Shown here piece by piece: positions 6,465-10,677 of a stretch of DNA of 64,000 nt. Position numbers and translations under genes: made by a program. This stretch comes from an uncultured Actinomycetes bacterium (lineage in GTDB: Bacteria > Actinomycetota > Thermoleophilia > UBA2241). The DNA lies in contig CAVRZA010000002.1 of NCBI GenBank assembly GCA_963725665.1, forward strand, positions 352,001-416,000. Reading direction: 5' to 3'. The notes beneath the pieces are model-generated. The model was not told the DNA's origin. It searched no databases and saw only the letters and a program-made list of their open reading frames with translations. How positions within the stretch are numbered: the stretch's first letter is position 1; every line of letters starts with the position of its first letter.

Positions 6465-6613
6465 AGCTCGTCCCCCTCTCGCTTCGTTTGGCACCGACCG
6501 ACGGGCAGTCGGCCGAAGGAAGCCGGCCGGGGCCGCCTTCCTGAGTCAATGCGGGTGCGCGGCGCGACCGTGAGTCGCGCCGCGCACCCCTAGGAACAGG
6601 CCGCCAGCGGCCG

Positions 6614-8237
6614 TCAGCCCGTCTCGCGCACGCCGGCGAAGAACTCGGCGTGGTCGTCGACGGGAGCCGCGGCGATGGCGTCGAGCCTCTCTTGCGGTGG
6701 CGGCGCCGTGACTAGGGTCACGACGATGCACGTAACGACACCGGCGATGACACCCCAGACCGCGTAGCCGAGCGCGCTCGCCGCCAGCTGGGACGGCCAG
6801 TAGTCGAACTCGAGCACGTACTTCTCGACGAAGTAGCCGATGAAGGCCGTGAGGCCACCTACCAGCGAACCGGCGAAGGCACCGCGCAGGTTGGCGCGCT
6901 TCCAGAACATCGCGAACACCGGCACCGCCACGCCGGCCGATAGGACGCCGCTCGACAGATAGTAGGCGTCCCACAATCCCTTCGGCAGGAGGTCGATGCC
7001 GAACGCGAAGAGGATCATCAGGAAGCACACGATGAGCGACCAGGCACGGCTCCAGGCCATGATCTTGCTGTCGCTCCAACCGCGCTTGCGGTACACGAGC
7101 GGCTGCAGGACGTCGTAGCTGATGTTCATGGCGCAGACGTTGGTGAAGGTCGCCATCGTCGACATCGACAGCGCGGCCAGCATGGGGAACAGGATGATAG
7201 AGGGCCCAGATCGGGAACTCCTGGCTCAAGAAGATGGTCATGATCTGGTAGGCGTCGCCGCCGAGCACAGCATCGTAGGCCGTCTTCGGCGGGAAGACAA
7301 CGAGAGCCAAGAGACCGAAGATGCTCGGCAGGATGAGCACCCAGATGTAGTTGTAGATGAGGTTGGCCCAGATGCCCTTGCGCGCCGCCTTCGTGTCCTT
7401 GGCCGACTGCGCCTTGAGCCACCAGTCCTCCTCGATCACCCACCCGGGAAGCAGGGCGACGATGGAGATGAAGATATACGGCACCCCCAGCGGGATAAGG
7501 CTCCAGGCGCTATAGCCCTCTCCGCTACCGGGCGGCACGACCCTTTTCAAATAGTCGTACATGCTCACCCCGGAGGGCAGGTCGCGGTAGGCGACGACGA
7601 CCATGGCGACGGTGACCACGGTGACGAAGATGATCGCCATGAAGAACTGCAGCACGTTGGAGTTGATCACCGAGTGGAAGCCGCCCATCCACATGTAGAT
7701 GGCGATCGGGATGCTGAACGCGAGGTACATCACCCACGGTTGCACGCCGAACTCGGGGGCGACGATGTGGGCGATAGTCCACACCTCGGCCGCCGACCAG
7801 ATGATGAAGGTGAAGATGTTGAACGGGCTCACCAGCACGCGCAGCGGGAGTCCGAAGCGGTTCTGCAGCATCTGCGGCTGCGAGATCGCCTTGATCGATC
7901 GCACCTTGGGCACCAACGCGACCATGCAGAACAGGAGGATGGACCAGGGTATCACCATCACCCAGATCCCCCCGAGGCCGTACATGTAGGTGCTATAGAT
8001 CGCCCAGGTGATGAAGCCGATCAGCAGCCACCCGGCGGCGATGCTGCAGCCCACGAGCAGCGCGCTTGTCGACCGGCTGGCCACCCAGTAATCCTTCTGC
8101 TGATCGTCCGCAGACCTCTTTCGGAGCATGCGGTAGATGGACTGGCCTATCCACAGGATGACCACGAAGTAGGCGATCATCGCCACCCAGAACCAGATGG
8201 CATGGCTCCCAACGGTGTCGGTTGCGGCTGCAACCAT
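6614..8237 (-). pseudogene. Sodium:solute symporter (SSS) family transporter, split by one frameshift near 7198-7200
   Basis: N-part (DYWVASRS, SQPQMLQNRFG, YMWMGGFHSVINSNVLQ) reads to ...EFPIWAL. The C-part continues in another frame (IILFPMLAALSMSTMATFTN...FWKRANLRGA). Could be a true lesion or an assembly error. Confidence 0.8.
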
Positions 8238-8432
8238 AGCTCCCCCTTTCGTAGCGATCACAGAAACGACCGTCCGCGATTCGGCCTGCGCCCTGCCGTG
8301 CGGCCGGGTGCACCAGGCCGCTCTCGCGACTCAAATGCGTCACGTTCTGCCTGCGCCCCCTTTCCTTCCGCTGCGAACGGTTTCCTGGCCACCGACGCGG
8401 GCGCGCCCCCTTGCGCGCCTGCGTCCGGATTA

Positions 8433-8515: not shown

Positions 8516-9154
8516 TCAGACCTTGACCCCGGCGAGCTCCTTGCACCGCTCGACACCGATCGACGCGTTCGGTCCGTAGCCGTCGGCACCGATCTCCTTG
8601 GCGTAGGCCTCGCTCACCGGGGCGCCACCGACGATGACCTTCACCTGGTCACGCAGGCCGGCTTCCTTGAGCGCGTTGATCGTCTCCGGCATCTTGGGGA
8701 TCGTCGTGGTGAGCAGGCCGCTCATGCCGAGGACGTCGGGCTTGTGCTCCTTCACGGCGGCCACGAAGTCGGCCGGTTTGATCCCCTTGCCCAGGTTGAT
8801 GACGTTGAAGCCGCCGCCCGCCAAGAGCATCGCCACGAGGTTCTTGCCGATGTCGTGCATGTCGCCCTCGACGGTGCCGATGACGACCGTGCCGATCGTC
8901 GCGCTCTCGCCGGCCGCCATGTGCGGCTTCACGAGGTCGAGGCAGGCCTGCATCGTCTCCGCGCTCAGAAGCACCTCGGGGATGAAGAACTCGCCGCTCT
9001 TCATGCGCTGGCCCACGACTTCCATGCCGGGCAACAGCGACTGGTCGAGGATGTCGCGCGCCGAGGCGCCGTCTGCCAGCATCTTCTCCGTCTGGGCCGT
9101 CGCGTGATCATCGCCGGCGATGATCATCTCTTTCAGCGTCTCGAAGTCTGCCAT
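8516..9154 (-). CDS. mttC: Methyltransferase cognate corrinoid protein (MttC-like)
   Basis: B12 cap domain (GEFFIPEVLLSA), DMHDIGKNLV (DxHxxG) and SGLLTTT, VGGAPV; directly downstream of mttB. Confidence 0.88.
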   Translation of the reverse strand: MADFETLKEMIIAGDDHATAQTEKMLADGASARDILDQSLLPGMEVVGQRMKSGEFFIPEVLLSAETMQACLDLVKPHMAAGESATIGTVVIGTVEGDMHDIGKNLVAMLLAGGGFNVINLGKGIKPADFVAAVKEHKPDVLGMSGLLTTTIPKMPETINALKEAGLRDQVKVIVGGAPVSEAYAKEIGADGYGPNASIGVERCKELAGVKV

Positions 9155-9198: not shown

Positions 9199-10677
9199 TC
9201 AGGAGATGGCGACGCCCGCCTTCTTCTCGACATCCCTCACGATGGCGCGGATCTCGTCCTGCACGTCGCTCGGGAGCGGCTCGACCTCGTAGGACTCGAT
9301 GACCTCCTTGGCCTTCTCGTTGCAGCGCTGGTAGTAGTCCTTGCTGCCGTCCATCTCCCACTCCTCGCGCACGCGCCGGTCGATGAGCCCTGCTCTCGAC
9401 TGGTGGGCGCGCATGTTGTCGCGCGTGCTCTTGCGGGAGAGGAAGTCCTTCTCGGAGCCCACGGCCACGATCTCGTCGACCATGAGCGTGGCATCGTTGG
9501 TGGGGATGCCGCGAAGGATGTACTTGCACATGCGCGCGGTCTCGTTGTCCATGACGAGCACCGCGTAGTCGATGGTGACGCCCGACTCGATCATCCCTGC
9601 ACCGTAGATCTGGTTGGCTCCTCCCAACGCAGGTACTAGTCCGGTGATGGTCTTCTCGTGTGCGGTCTGCGCATCACCTAGTTTGGAATCCGCCTACAAG
9701 CCGGCCACGTAGCTGGGCAGCAGGTAGTAGCGCGCCAGGGCCGGGACGGCGGCGCTGATGAGTGCCAGCTCCGGTGTGCCCACCGAGGCCGTGGCCCGCT
9801 GCAGGTCGAAGGCCGTCGTCGATGAGCCGTAGATCACCGGGCAGCCCTTCTCGGCCAGCTGGCAGAGAACGACGCCGCCCAAGACCTCGGCGTTGTGCGT
9901 GACCAGTGTGCCCGCCAGGGTGACCGGTGCCGAGCCGCCGGACATGGCCATCGAGAGCGGCATCGCTGGCATGTGAGCGCGCGCGGCCGAGATCATGCAG
10001 CCGGTGAACTCGCCCATCAGCTTCAAGGGGCTGACCGGGCAGCTCAGGAACTCGAGCATGGGACGCTCGGCCAGCTTGTCGCGGCCGCCGACGACGGCCG
10101 CCGCGGCGTCGATCGTTAACTCGGCGCCGTGATGGTTGAGCGCCAGGCTACAGATCGGCTTGGTGGTGTTGAGCAACGTGGCCTCGATGAGGTGCGCCTC
10201 GGCGACCTCCGGAGCGACGTCGTTGGCCGTCACGGCGACGGTGTAGACCTCGATGTCGTCGAGGGCGTCGACCAGCTTGGCGAGGTCACCGACGTCTTTC
10301 TTGGTCGTCTGGCGCAGCTCGCCTGTGTAGGGGTCGACCGCCTTGACGCCCTCGGCGAAGTTGGTGTAGCTGACGCGCTTGCCCTCGAGGACGACGTCCT
10401 TGTCGGGGGTGCGCCCGCAGAGGACGACCTTGGAGGGCGCCCAGGAAACGGTCTCCTCCAGGACGTGCTGCGGGATCCTGACCTTGCGCTCGGCCCGGTC
10501 CACCTTGCAGCCGCCGTCGGCGAAGAGGTCGAGAGCCTCGTCGTCCTCGACCCAGAGGCCCGTCTTCTCGAGCACTTCGACGGTCGCCCAGTGGATGTCG
10601 TCGAGCTCATCTTGGGTGAAGATCTCGACGCCGAGGCCTCCGTTGCGGAGACCGCCGGCATGCTGGGGTCGGATCAT
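9199..10677 (-). CDS. mttB: Pyrrolysine-containing trimethylamine:corrinoid methyltransferase (in-frame TAG at 9694-9696)
   Basis: ORFs 9694..10677 and 9199..9627 share a frame separated only by TAG. Read-through gives [44 protein letters not shown], the Pyl-site context of MttB; 492 aa in total. Confidence 0.93.
9620..9693 (-). promoter_or_regulatory. Candidate PYLIS-like stem-loop immediately 3' of the amber codon
   Basis: mRNA pairings UUCCAA/UUGGGA, ACUAG/CUAGU, GUGAUG/CAUCAC and inner UGCG/CGCA; 12 of 25 codons end in A/T versus 1 of 25 before the TAG. Confidence 0.55.

Follow-up and report, generated by a model that had tools for sequence, protein, structure and literature searches.

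A conserved RNA hairpin downstream of the in-frame UAG codon of bacterial mttB genes

The methyltransferase gene mttB studied here lies in a stretch of 64,000 nucleotides from the genome of an uncultured actinobacterium (contig CAVRZA010000002.1, positions 352,001 to 416,000; this whole stretch is called the window), and contains an in-frame amber codon (TAG, UAG in the mRNA) that presumably encodes pyrrolysine (Pyl). We found that a small hairpin in the sense-strand RNA, beginning 64 nt after the U of UAG, is conserved with compensatory base changes among bacterial TAG-containing mttB genes, and that it is broken in close homologs in which a sense codon occupies the Pyl position. A comparable hairpin follows the UAG of mtbB, and both lie in regions where the choice of synonymous codons departs from that in the rest of the gene.

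Results

A covarying hairpin in TAG-containing mttB genes

The features at the centre of the analysis were:

9199..10677, minus strand: mttB, Pyl-type trimethylamine:corrinoid methyltransferase, from a match to NCBIfam TIGR02369 trimeth_pyl
9694..9696, minus strand: in-frame TAG, the amber codon, presumed pyrrolysine, codon 328 of mttB
9610..9632, minus strand: conserved hairpin with 5′ arm 9632–9630 plus 9628–9624 (C9629 bulged), loop 9623–9618 and 3′ arm 9617–9610

The gene comprises 492 codons and a TGA stop, with one in-frame TAG in its translation, and its product belongs to the trimeth_pyl family (657.1 bits against a curated cut-off of 525). We compared it with 80 TAG-mttB loci kept from 571 relatives at one genome per species, together with six further loci and five paralogs, leaving out L082, which has two TAGs, and one duplicate. 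The resulting set held 76 distinct genes with a GC content at third codon positions (GC3) above 0.8, among which overall identity falls to ~50%, and 13 genes with GC3 of 0.36–0.63. The window TAG aligned in the same column as the TAG of 76/76 high-GC relatives.

The hairpin, first pointed to by RNAalifold on orthologs, has a predicted stability of −10.5 kcal/mol in the window gene and accounts for 94.5% of the ensemble, with 7 of 200 shuffles as stable; its pair probabilities are 0.98–1.0 in a 102-nt context. Across the 76-gene alignment (72 distinct rows counted), the nine hairpin pairs were formed in 94.6% of cells and the pairing and covariation score was reached by 0 of 500 shuffles, while controls in which the partner was slid by 1–3 columns were 14–47% paired. 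The structure is 8–9 bp in size and occupies +64 to +86 relative to the U of UAG (position 0), with its loop at +74 to +77, or at +70 to +75 in the larger loop of the window gene. The first loop base is an invariant A at a free third codon position, followed by G.

Three pairs covary. The third base of codon +22 and the middle base of codon +29 form A-U in 37 genes, G-U in 27 and U-A in 12, with mismatches in 0/76, such that NCT (CCT) was found exclusively with CAG, and NCA or NCG (CCA, CCG or GCA) exclusively with CTG. Between codon +24 (Leu, first base) and codon +28 (middle base) the combination is U-A in 70 genes, C-G in 5 and C-A in 1, TTG being matched with AAC, and CTG with AGC. The pair at the apex is C-G in 51 genes, G-C in 4 and mismatched in 21, the window gene being among the mismatches and consequently having a 6-nt loop. 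On a FastTree tree from which the hairpin columns were excluded, the 3′ partners of the first two covarying pairs changed at least four and at least two times. The many G-U pairs fit selection on the sense-strand RNA rather than on DNA or the antisense strand, and we conclude that bacterial TAG-mttB genes contain a sense-strand RNA hairpin under selection.

Phylogenetic distribution and loss with the TAG codon

The 13 lower-GC mttB genes, of which 12 are labelled Desulfobacterota and one comes from a worm-associated deltaproteobacterium, retained the codons GCG, TTG, GCA and GCC in 13/13 cases, and AAC and CTG in 12/13 each. In genes from Methanosarcina (2), Methanolobus, Methanococcoides and Thermincola (2), an identical or almost identical PALAGAN peptide is encoded by different codons and the hairpin is not formed, which shows that the hairpin is not forced by the protein. 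Among 18 further readable mttB genes (the mis-anchored rows L286, L294 and L298 not counted), four from a high-GC metagenome-assembled genome (MAG) labelled Deltaproteobacteria kept the hairpin, three of them perfectly and one with an apical mismatch. The 11 genes labelled Firmicutes included one perfect hairpin, three with one mismatch, three with two and four with at least three; the two from Thermodesulfovibrionales had three and four mismatches, and the one from Methanosalsum had six. The hairpin is therefore a property of the bacterial UAG-mttB genes of Actinomycetota and Desulfobacterota.

We also looked for homologs without TAG, in 151 genomes from the class and 89 from the family. In six close homologs, 63–68% identical to TAG genes, the Pyl position is occupied by Leu (CTC) or Val (GTC):

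G149:C4:793926-795347 (L316) and five relatives, L317–L321: clade of MttB homologs without TAG

These had 3, 3, 4, 3, 7 and 4 of the nine hairpin pairs mismatched, even though four of the six still encode (P/A)ALAGAN. Before the former Pyl position they read GGC GGC (GGC GGA in one and GGT GGT in another), and their next 25 codons included 4, 3, 3, 2, 3 and 1 A/T-ending codons. By comparison, two TAG genes, one of which adjoins a TAG-less copy in the same genome, had 0 and 1 mismatches and 7 and 6 A/T-ending codons over the same 25. The six homologs group as a single clade within the TAG genes (SH-like support 100), and its members are deeply diverged from each other. The hairpin thus decays when a sense codon replaces TAG. 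The evolutionary association with UAG that would be expected of a functional PYLIS element was found here, with the structure characterizing the 76 Actinomycetota and 13 lower-GC TAG genes and broken in 6/6 homologs without TAG.

A counterpart in mtbB

The mtbB gene, whose product is unrelated to MttB, contains a hairpin at about the same distance from UAG whose covariation is stronger. The mtbB set was built from 80 loci, one of which was dropped for its many TGA codons, plus seven of the genome's own paralogs without a truncated eighth, and gave 62 distinct genes with GC3 above 0.8 in addition to 24 lower-GC genes. The hairpin spans codons +24 to +30, with 7 bp and a 4-nt loop that begins A-G (stem at about +73 to +91, loop at +80 to +83, again with the U of UAG as 0). 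Third codon positions supply both bases of two pairs, which were canonical in 62/62 genes, one as C-G 31, U-G 16, G-C 13 and U-A 2, and the other as C-G 36, G-C 11, A-U 6, U-A 5 and U-G 4, with at least eight and at least nine changes of their 3′ partners on the tree. Control pairings of other third positions were 39–66% canonical.

Among lower-GC bacterial mtbB genes, GGA, which provides the first loop base, was kept in 17/17, and 14 of these had all seven pairs and three had one mismatch. The hairpin is intact in Natroniella mtbB (GC3 0.28), with G/C-ending codons that are rare there. The archaeal mtbB genes (7/7) have GGT GAC and one or two broken pairs. The mtbB hairpin already forms the 3′ stem-loop of the Rfam family PYLIS_2, against which the genome's own mtbB scores 89.3 bits. 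mtmB did not yield a third high-GC family, as there was one high-GC relative among 80 loci.

Two observations concern neighbouring sequence properties. Most mtbB genes of the genome fold more tightly after TAG than their synonymous permutations (z down to −2.7), which fits the proximal hairpin that PYLIS_2 has right after UAG and that mttB lacks. In the window mttB gene, the loop and adjoining stem bases (9618–9625) resemble a strong Shine-Dalgarno motif, and related G-rich motifs occur in the loops of mtbB and of the majority of mttB genes, each including the invariant third-position A; no start codon was found at a usable distance after the motif in the window.

Codon usage around the amber codon

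An earlier note on this DNA had reported an abrupt shift in codon usage right after the amber codon, and this shift is real and more general than its author knew. The codons concerned are:

9619..9693, minus strand: 25 codons following TAG, of which 12 end in A/T by codon count
9697..9699, minus strand: codon −1, Leu TTG, a rare Leu codon by codon usage

Our count agreed with the note in full, giving the same 12 A/T-ending codons among the 25 after TAG versus 1 among the 25 before it. Over the whole window mttB, 45/493 codons end in A or T, and 12 is the highest value of all sliding 25-codon windows. Conditioned on amino acids and on the codon usage of the genome's 14 Pyl genes, 2.11 A/T-ending codons were expected (Poisson-binomial P = 1.7 × 10−7). 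The five TAG-mttB paralogs of the genome have 12, 7, 4, 5 and 6 such codons in the 25 after TAG, and the 14 Pyl genes, which represent three non-homologous families, have 74 vs. 29.6 expected, with the caveat that these genes are not independent. In a paralog alignment of 25 of the 31 superfamily matches (six partial ones left out), the five Pyl mttB paralogs had 27.2% A/T-ending codons at these 25 positions vs. 9.2% gene-wide, while the 20 non-Pyl MttB paralogs had 9.0% at the equivalent codons vs. 10.8% gene-wide. We used methyltransferase genes as the background in place of genome-wide open reading frames (ORFs), as the genome-wide frequency of windows rich in A/T-ending codons was unusable, the crude ORFs including wrong frames and over-extended starts.

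Across the 76 mttB genes, the bins starting 0, 10, 20, 30 and 40 codons after TAG contained 17.5, 15.4, 21.4, 13.7 and 9.9% A/T-ending codons against a background of 3–10% per 10-codon bin. The other high bins were the first (24.5%) and the last bin printed (16.6%); the former is the usual signature of relaxed structure at gene starts and is similar in size to the post-TAG signal. For the 62 mtbB genes the corresponding post-TAG bins were 16.1, 11.1, 35.5, 10.2 and 11.0%, over a background of ~3–13% per bin (one bin 15.6%). The enrichment was concentrated in hot columns, defined as those with at least 30% A/T-ending codons: 8 of 14 lay between −2 and +43 in mttB, and 9 of 12 at +2 to +60 in mtbB, where codon +26 is GGA in 62/62. 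When the hot columns were removed from the mttB alignment, 8.3% of codons in the region ended in A/T vs. 6.0% elsewhere (Mann-Whitney p = 0.44), so that the post-TAG enrichment is site-specific and not diffuse. Four of the window's 12 codons fall at alignment codons that are hot family-wide (+7, +12, +22 and +25) and the rest are clade- or gene-specific; its total exceeds that of most relatives (3–10). Codon choice at individual alignment positions of the 76 genes was as follows:

Codon −2: GGT 38, GGG 34, GGC 4
Codon +7: GGT 33, AGT 13
Codon +12: GGT 51
Codon +23: GCG 76/76
Codon +24: TTG 70, CTG 6
Codon +25: GCA 65, GGA 11, thus 100% A-ending

Codon choice was also restricted immediately upstream of the Pyl codon. 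Leu at this position is encoded by TTG or TTA and never by CTN in high-GC mttB (33/33) and high-GC mtbB (61/61), although elsewhere in these genes TTG accounts for just 6.4% of Leu codons. TTG or TTA also precedes the Pyl codon in four of the five bacterial mtmB genes sampled (the genome's own and L198–L201), the fifth having ATA (L253, Tissierellaceae). Where the preceding residue is Ala, it is GCG in 38/39 cases. The archaeal codon before Pyl is ATA in 7/7 mtbB and 58/75 mtmB genes.

Folding of the region and other candidate pairings

The earlier note had further proposed that the rare codons build a nested three-stem structure, and that synonymous sites are constrained by it. The complementary segments that it listed are present in the sequence, but as a structure they amount to no more than chance. 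The minimum free energy (MFE) of 9610–9699 was −22.5 kcal/mol vs. −21.15 ± 3.09 for dinucleotide shuffles (z = −0.44; 59/200 as good), and from TAG to 30 codons downstream the native value was −21.4 vs. −22.4 ± 2.4 for synonymous permutations (z = +0.41). In the 102-nt context, the three-stem model reached −11.2 vs. an MFE of −29.2, with pair probabilities of 0.01 or less. Over 10 orthologs (8 distinct rows) it was 72.1% paired and its covariation score was reached by 152/500 shuffles, and its middle helix ACUAG/CUAGU, 37.5% paired in the 10 orthologs, is window-specific. Nor do the rare codons add stability: recodings with usual codons gave −31.9 ± 3.1 and 100/100 were more stable than the native segment, indicating that the rare codons loosen the RNA. 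We accordingly rejected the nested model for its lack of excess stability, its pair probabilities (≤0.01) and its lack of covariation above shuffles. The outer arm UUGGGA is part of the 5′ arm of the conserved hairpin, which renders the note's pairs improbable and the two models mutually exclusive. What is conserved is an element overlapping the 3′ end of the interval that the note reported, and not the stem it proposed. Its more general claim therefore holds in part, as synonymous sites are constrained in part by an RNA structure, a hairpin that is kept and tied to the TAG, and not by the particular stem suggested.

The loosening itself was not uniform among genes. Compared with typical recodings, the window gene is much less stable (z = +3.4), and the other 13 Pyl genes are mixed; with the enrichment also being site-specific, weakening of structure by rare codons was kept only in part as a family-wide cause. 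In 60-nt windows across the 76 mttB genes, mean MFE was −20.8 (sd 2.8 between positions), and on average no stretch of the gene folded less stably than the one starting at +6 (−14.3). Values reached −23 where the hairpin was included and were weak again for windows starting at +72 to +150; in mtbB the weakest folding of the gene was in windows starting at +78 to +108. Both hairpins thus adjoin weakly folded RNA.

Other pairings received less support. RNAalifold indicated one weak candidate partner for the amber region:

9603..9608, minus strand: candidate long-range partner of the amber region, pairing with 9698–9693

This UAG × UCUACG pairing was 97.7% paired, with changes that were one-sided and none compensatory, and the TAG together with conserved Ile-Tyr-Gly codons holds its partners fixed. 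A 5-bp GUGAC/GUCAC helix, which would explain GGT at +7 and +12, was 76–84% paired with 0 compensatory changes and is not formed in the window gene. An all-against-all pair scan proved too permissive, clade effects dominating its output. Depletion of C, or avoidance of rut sites, was dropped as an explanation of its own on account of patchy profiles and is kept solely within the post-termination alternative discussed below.

Relation to known RNA elements

Positions 9597..9696 (minus strand) match the Rfam family RF02510 PYLIS_3 with 71.4 bits, above the gathering score of 38, and thus belong to it. This family, derived from Have et al. 2013 (PMC3639795), represents the identical stretch of 100 nt that follows the Pyl UAG of mttB without a gap. 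It differs from the element described here in that its consensus has helices of only 1–3 bp and no covarying hairpin, and a consensus sequence resembling archaeal codon choices. The consensus pairs are not formed in the window, where the 3-bp helix (model positions 33–35 × 60–62) is non-canonical at all three pairs, which means that the match score comes from sequence. The region therefore is a known Rfam family, and the hairpin structure and its link to TAG are absent from that family's description.

A structural likeness exists with the 3′ hairpin of RF02509 PYLIS_2 of mtbB (model positions 73–92), which has the same A-G loop start at a similar distance from UAG and is, in our sample, specific to bacteria. 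PYLIS_2 differs in gene family, in stem sequence, in lying 6–8 nt further from UAG and in having, unlike mttB, an additional proximal hairpin right after UAG. RF01982 PYLIS_1 from Methanosarcina mtmB1 is likewise a proposed mRNA structure after a Pyl UAG that favours Pyl insertion, but it is archaeal and a large two-level structure starting ~10 nt after UAG; the genome's own mtmB scores 57.8 against it, below the gathering score of 70. With the bacterial SECIS the hairpin shares its location in a coding region downstream of a recoded stop that is also used as a stop. The bacterial SECIS lies directly downstream of UGA and acts through the dedicated factor SelB, as described in a 2007 study (PMC1976440), whereas in mttB pairing begins 64 nt beyond the U of UAG, with the loop at +70 to +77, a placement unlike that of SECIS.

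The same 2007 study reports, from a manual search, that bacterial Pyl genes were without a common structure (PMC1976440). In the 2013 article, a canonical structure could be drawn for mtmB and mtbB, with no sign of a common one, and no significant one, for mttB (PMC3639795), and a recent article states that no mechanism of targeted Pyl insertion is known (PMC12626013). Our full-text literature search, in which the matching articles were judged by listing and abstract, found no description of this mttB hairpin. One incidental match joined pyrrolysine with Thermoleophilia.

Gene context and host genome

The genome (3.73 Mb, 68% GC) belongs to a Thermoleophilia-like actinobacterium, and the nearest relatives of the window mttB come from MAGs labelled Thermoleophilia. 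Downstream of mttB, at its 3′ side and in the same direction, are:

8519..9154, minus strand: corrinoid protein gene, MttC-like, from Pfam B12-binding_2 and B12-binding
6549..8261, minus strand: sodium:solute symporter family gene, from Pfam SSF (E = 5.5 × 10−10)

The genome encodes Pyl machinery, namely PylS (C-terminal domain, 314.6 bits) and a tRNA-Pyl(CUA); ARAGORN found no tRNA at the PylS locus, the tRNA-Pyl gene being elsewhere on the same contig. It has 14 methylamine methyltransferase genes with in-frame TAG (5 mttB, 8 mtbB and 1 mtmB), and 31 MttB-superfamily matches of which 5 have TAG, leaving ~25 non-Pyl members. TAG ended 588 of 1597 crude ORFs (37%), a rough set, so that the earlier note's description of TAG as a common stop in this genome roughly holds. 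In the host's family, 84 of 89 genomes have close MttB homologs, nearly all listed with in-frame TAG.

Contigs from four public sequencing runs contained relatives at 90–99% identity in soil, peat and paddy libraries. One contig from an RNA library (373 nt, 25 differences) covers the TAG and the hairpin, and shows only a relative's sequence across the TAG. The eighth mtbB match (G000:C2:503975-505331) is split into adjacent frames (503975–505138 and 505140–505331), and an mtmB-like match (C4:222297-223123) lies in three short neighbouring pieces; both may be frameshifted or decaying copies. Two in-frame TAGs occur in the mttB relatives L082 (codons 282 and 325), G014:C75:845-2302 (L305), G035:C58:48822-50285 and G220:C15:143227-144624; the second TAG may be a further Pyl site, an error or a sign of decay. 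The mttB of L016, named 'uncultured Coriobacteriaceae bacterium', is 81% identical to the window gene and clusters with Thermoleophilia MAGs, and its label or binning may be off.

Discussion

The interpretation that we favour, by a modest degree of confidence, is that the hairpin belongs to a cis-acting element for decoding UAG as Pyl in organisms where UAG is also a frequent stop; an effect on read-through is what we infer from its conservation and its loss with the codon. Selection at the nucleotide level acts on synonymous sites in the ~45 codons after the amber codon, with the 8–9 bp hairpin starting 64 nt after the U of UAG as its clearest product, and the hairpin would most likely raise the yield of full-length protein where release factor 1 (RF1) also reads UAG. 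The extra A/T-ending codons private to the window gene form no stem of the kind suggested in the earlier note; their effect is weak folding of the spacer that separates UAG from the hairpin. Action over 64 nt would need a bound factor, looping of the weakly folded spacer or events after termination.

Several points weigh against such a role in decoding. mRNA held by a ribosome decoding UAG reaches ~12–15 nt downstream, so that the hairpin starts outside it and the mode of action of known stimulators and of SECIS is not directly transferable; we know of no Pyl-specific elongation factor. Pyl-decoding archaea, Thermincola and most sampled Firmicutes are without the mttB hairpin, which indicates that it is not generally required. 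Covariation in mttB is limited to three pairs, the trees are FastTree trees of relatives that are not independent and come mostly from MAGs, and the six TAG-less homologs, being one clade, represent a single evolutionary event. As the diffuse enrichment is weak once hot columns are removed, amino-acid composition may account for the generally weak folding of the spacer better than selection does. Finally, the mtmB PYLIS has been reported to be dispensable in E. coli (PMC3639795; bioRxiv 10.1101/2024.09.30.615893).

A broader proposal, which we offer tentatively and regard as possible more than probable, is that bacteria using UAG both as a stop and for Pyl mark their Pyl codons by a dedicated downstream hairpin signal. 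Such a signal would consist of a short hairpin with an invariant A-G loop start, ~65–90 nt after UAG and in weakly folded RNA, would have arisen independently in mttB and mtbB, and through recognition by a trans factor or the translation machinery would favour Pyl-tRNA over RF1.

Among other explanations, we think it unlikely, though worth serious attention, that the hairpin and fixed codons are tied to the TAG but handle termination at UAG instead of decoding, for example by blocking or timing Rho polarity on the mttC-like and transporter genes, or, at times of Pyl-tRNA scarcity, by protecting or marking the 3′ part of the mRNA that ribosomes have left free. An element 64 nt away is better placed to act on naked RNA behind a terminated ribosome than on a decoding one, both genes follow mttB in the same direction, and loss of the hairpin in the TAG-less clade fits equally well. 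Several bins after UAG are also G-rich relative to C, with (C−G)/(C+G) of −0.11, −0.06 and −0.33 in mttB and −0.23, −0.27 and −0.20 in mtbB; yet depletion of C at third positions is patchy, with mttB bins 0 and +10 normal at 0.52, and a simple roadblock predicts neither the invariant loop A nor the like placement in two families. An effect on translation speed alone, in which rare codons or the Shine-Dalgarno-like loop pause ribosomes after UAG and RNA structure plays no role, appears improbable. A/T-ending codons are indeed rare in the genome, and the loop motifs of the window gene, of the majority of mttB genes and of mtbB would be compatible with pausing, but the enrichment is site-specific, the covarying combinations (CCT with CAG; CCA, CCG or GCA with CTG) are explained by pairing and not by rarity, and low-GC bacteria such as Natroniella, with its mtbB, keep a hairpin whose G/C-ending codons are the rare ones there.

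Very little probability remains for the nested three-stem structure, with its inner hairpin, acting right after UAG to stimulate read-through as proposed for the archaeal mtmB PYLIS. Its complementary segments exist, with GUGAUG/CAUCAC present in the MFE structure of the 90-nt piece, window-private synonymous choices (two CTA and one GAT) create the complements, and a start 5 nt after UAG would suit a recoding stimulator, but the comparisons above (z of −0.44 and +0.41, −11.2 vs. −29.2, 152/500 shuffles) largely refute it in silico, and contigs of close relatives in public runs have CTT in place of the first CTA (place 9679). We consider it scarcely credible that the shift is a functionless compositional relic, a patch from gene conversion or transfer from a lower-GC homolog, or chance. 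The 12 A/T-ending codons of the window gene, more than in most relatives and partly private, might suggest this; against it stand the P value of 1.7 × 10−7 for this gene alone, the recurrence of the same hot positions in 76 genes with identity down to ~50%, and the absence of the effect from 20 non-Pyl paralogs together with its loss in the TAG-less clade.

The question of how a cell tells a UAG for Pyl from a UAG for stop is made acute in this genome by its 14 Pyl genes and by the ~37% of crude ORFs that end in TAG. The hairpin is small, defined to the base, backed by compensatory changes and lost with the TAG. If it raises Pyl insertion, it would be useful for the engineering of amber suppression, whereas an action on polarity or mRNA fate would show how operons handle a leaky in-frame stop. 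Should the hairpins of mttB and mtbB prove to be a dedicated signal, they would constitute a bacterial counterpart of SECIS, which earlier searches judged nonexistent.

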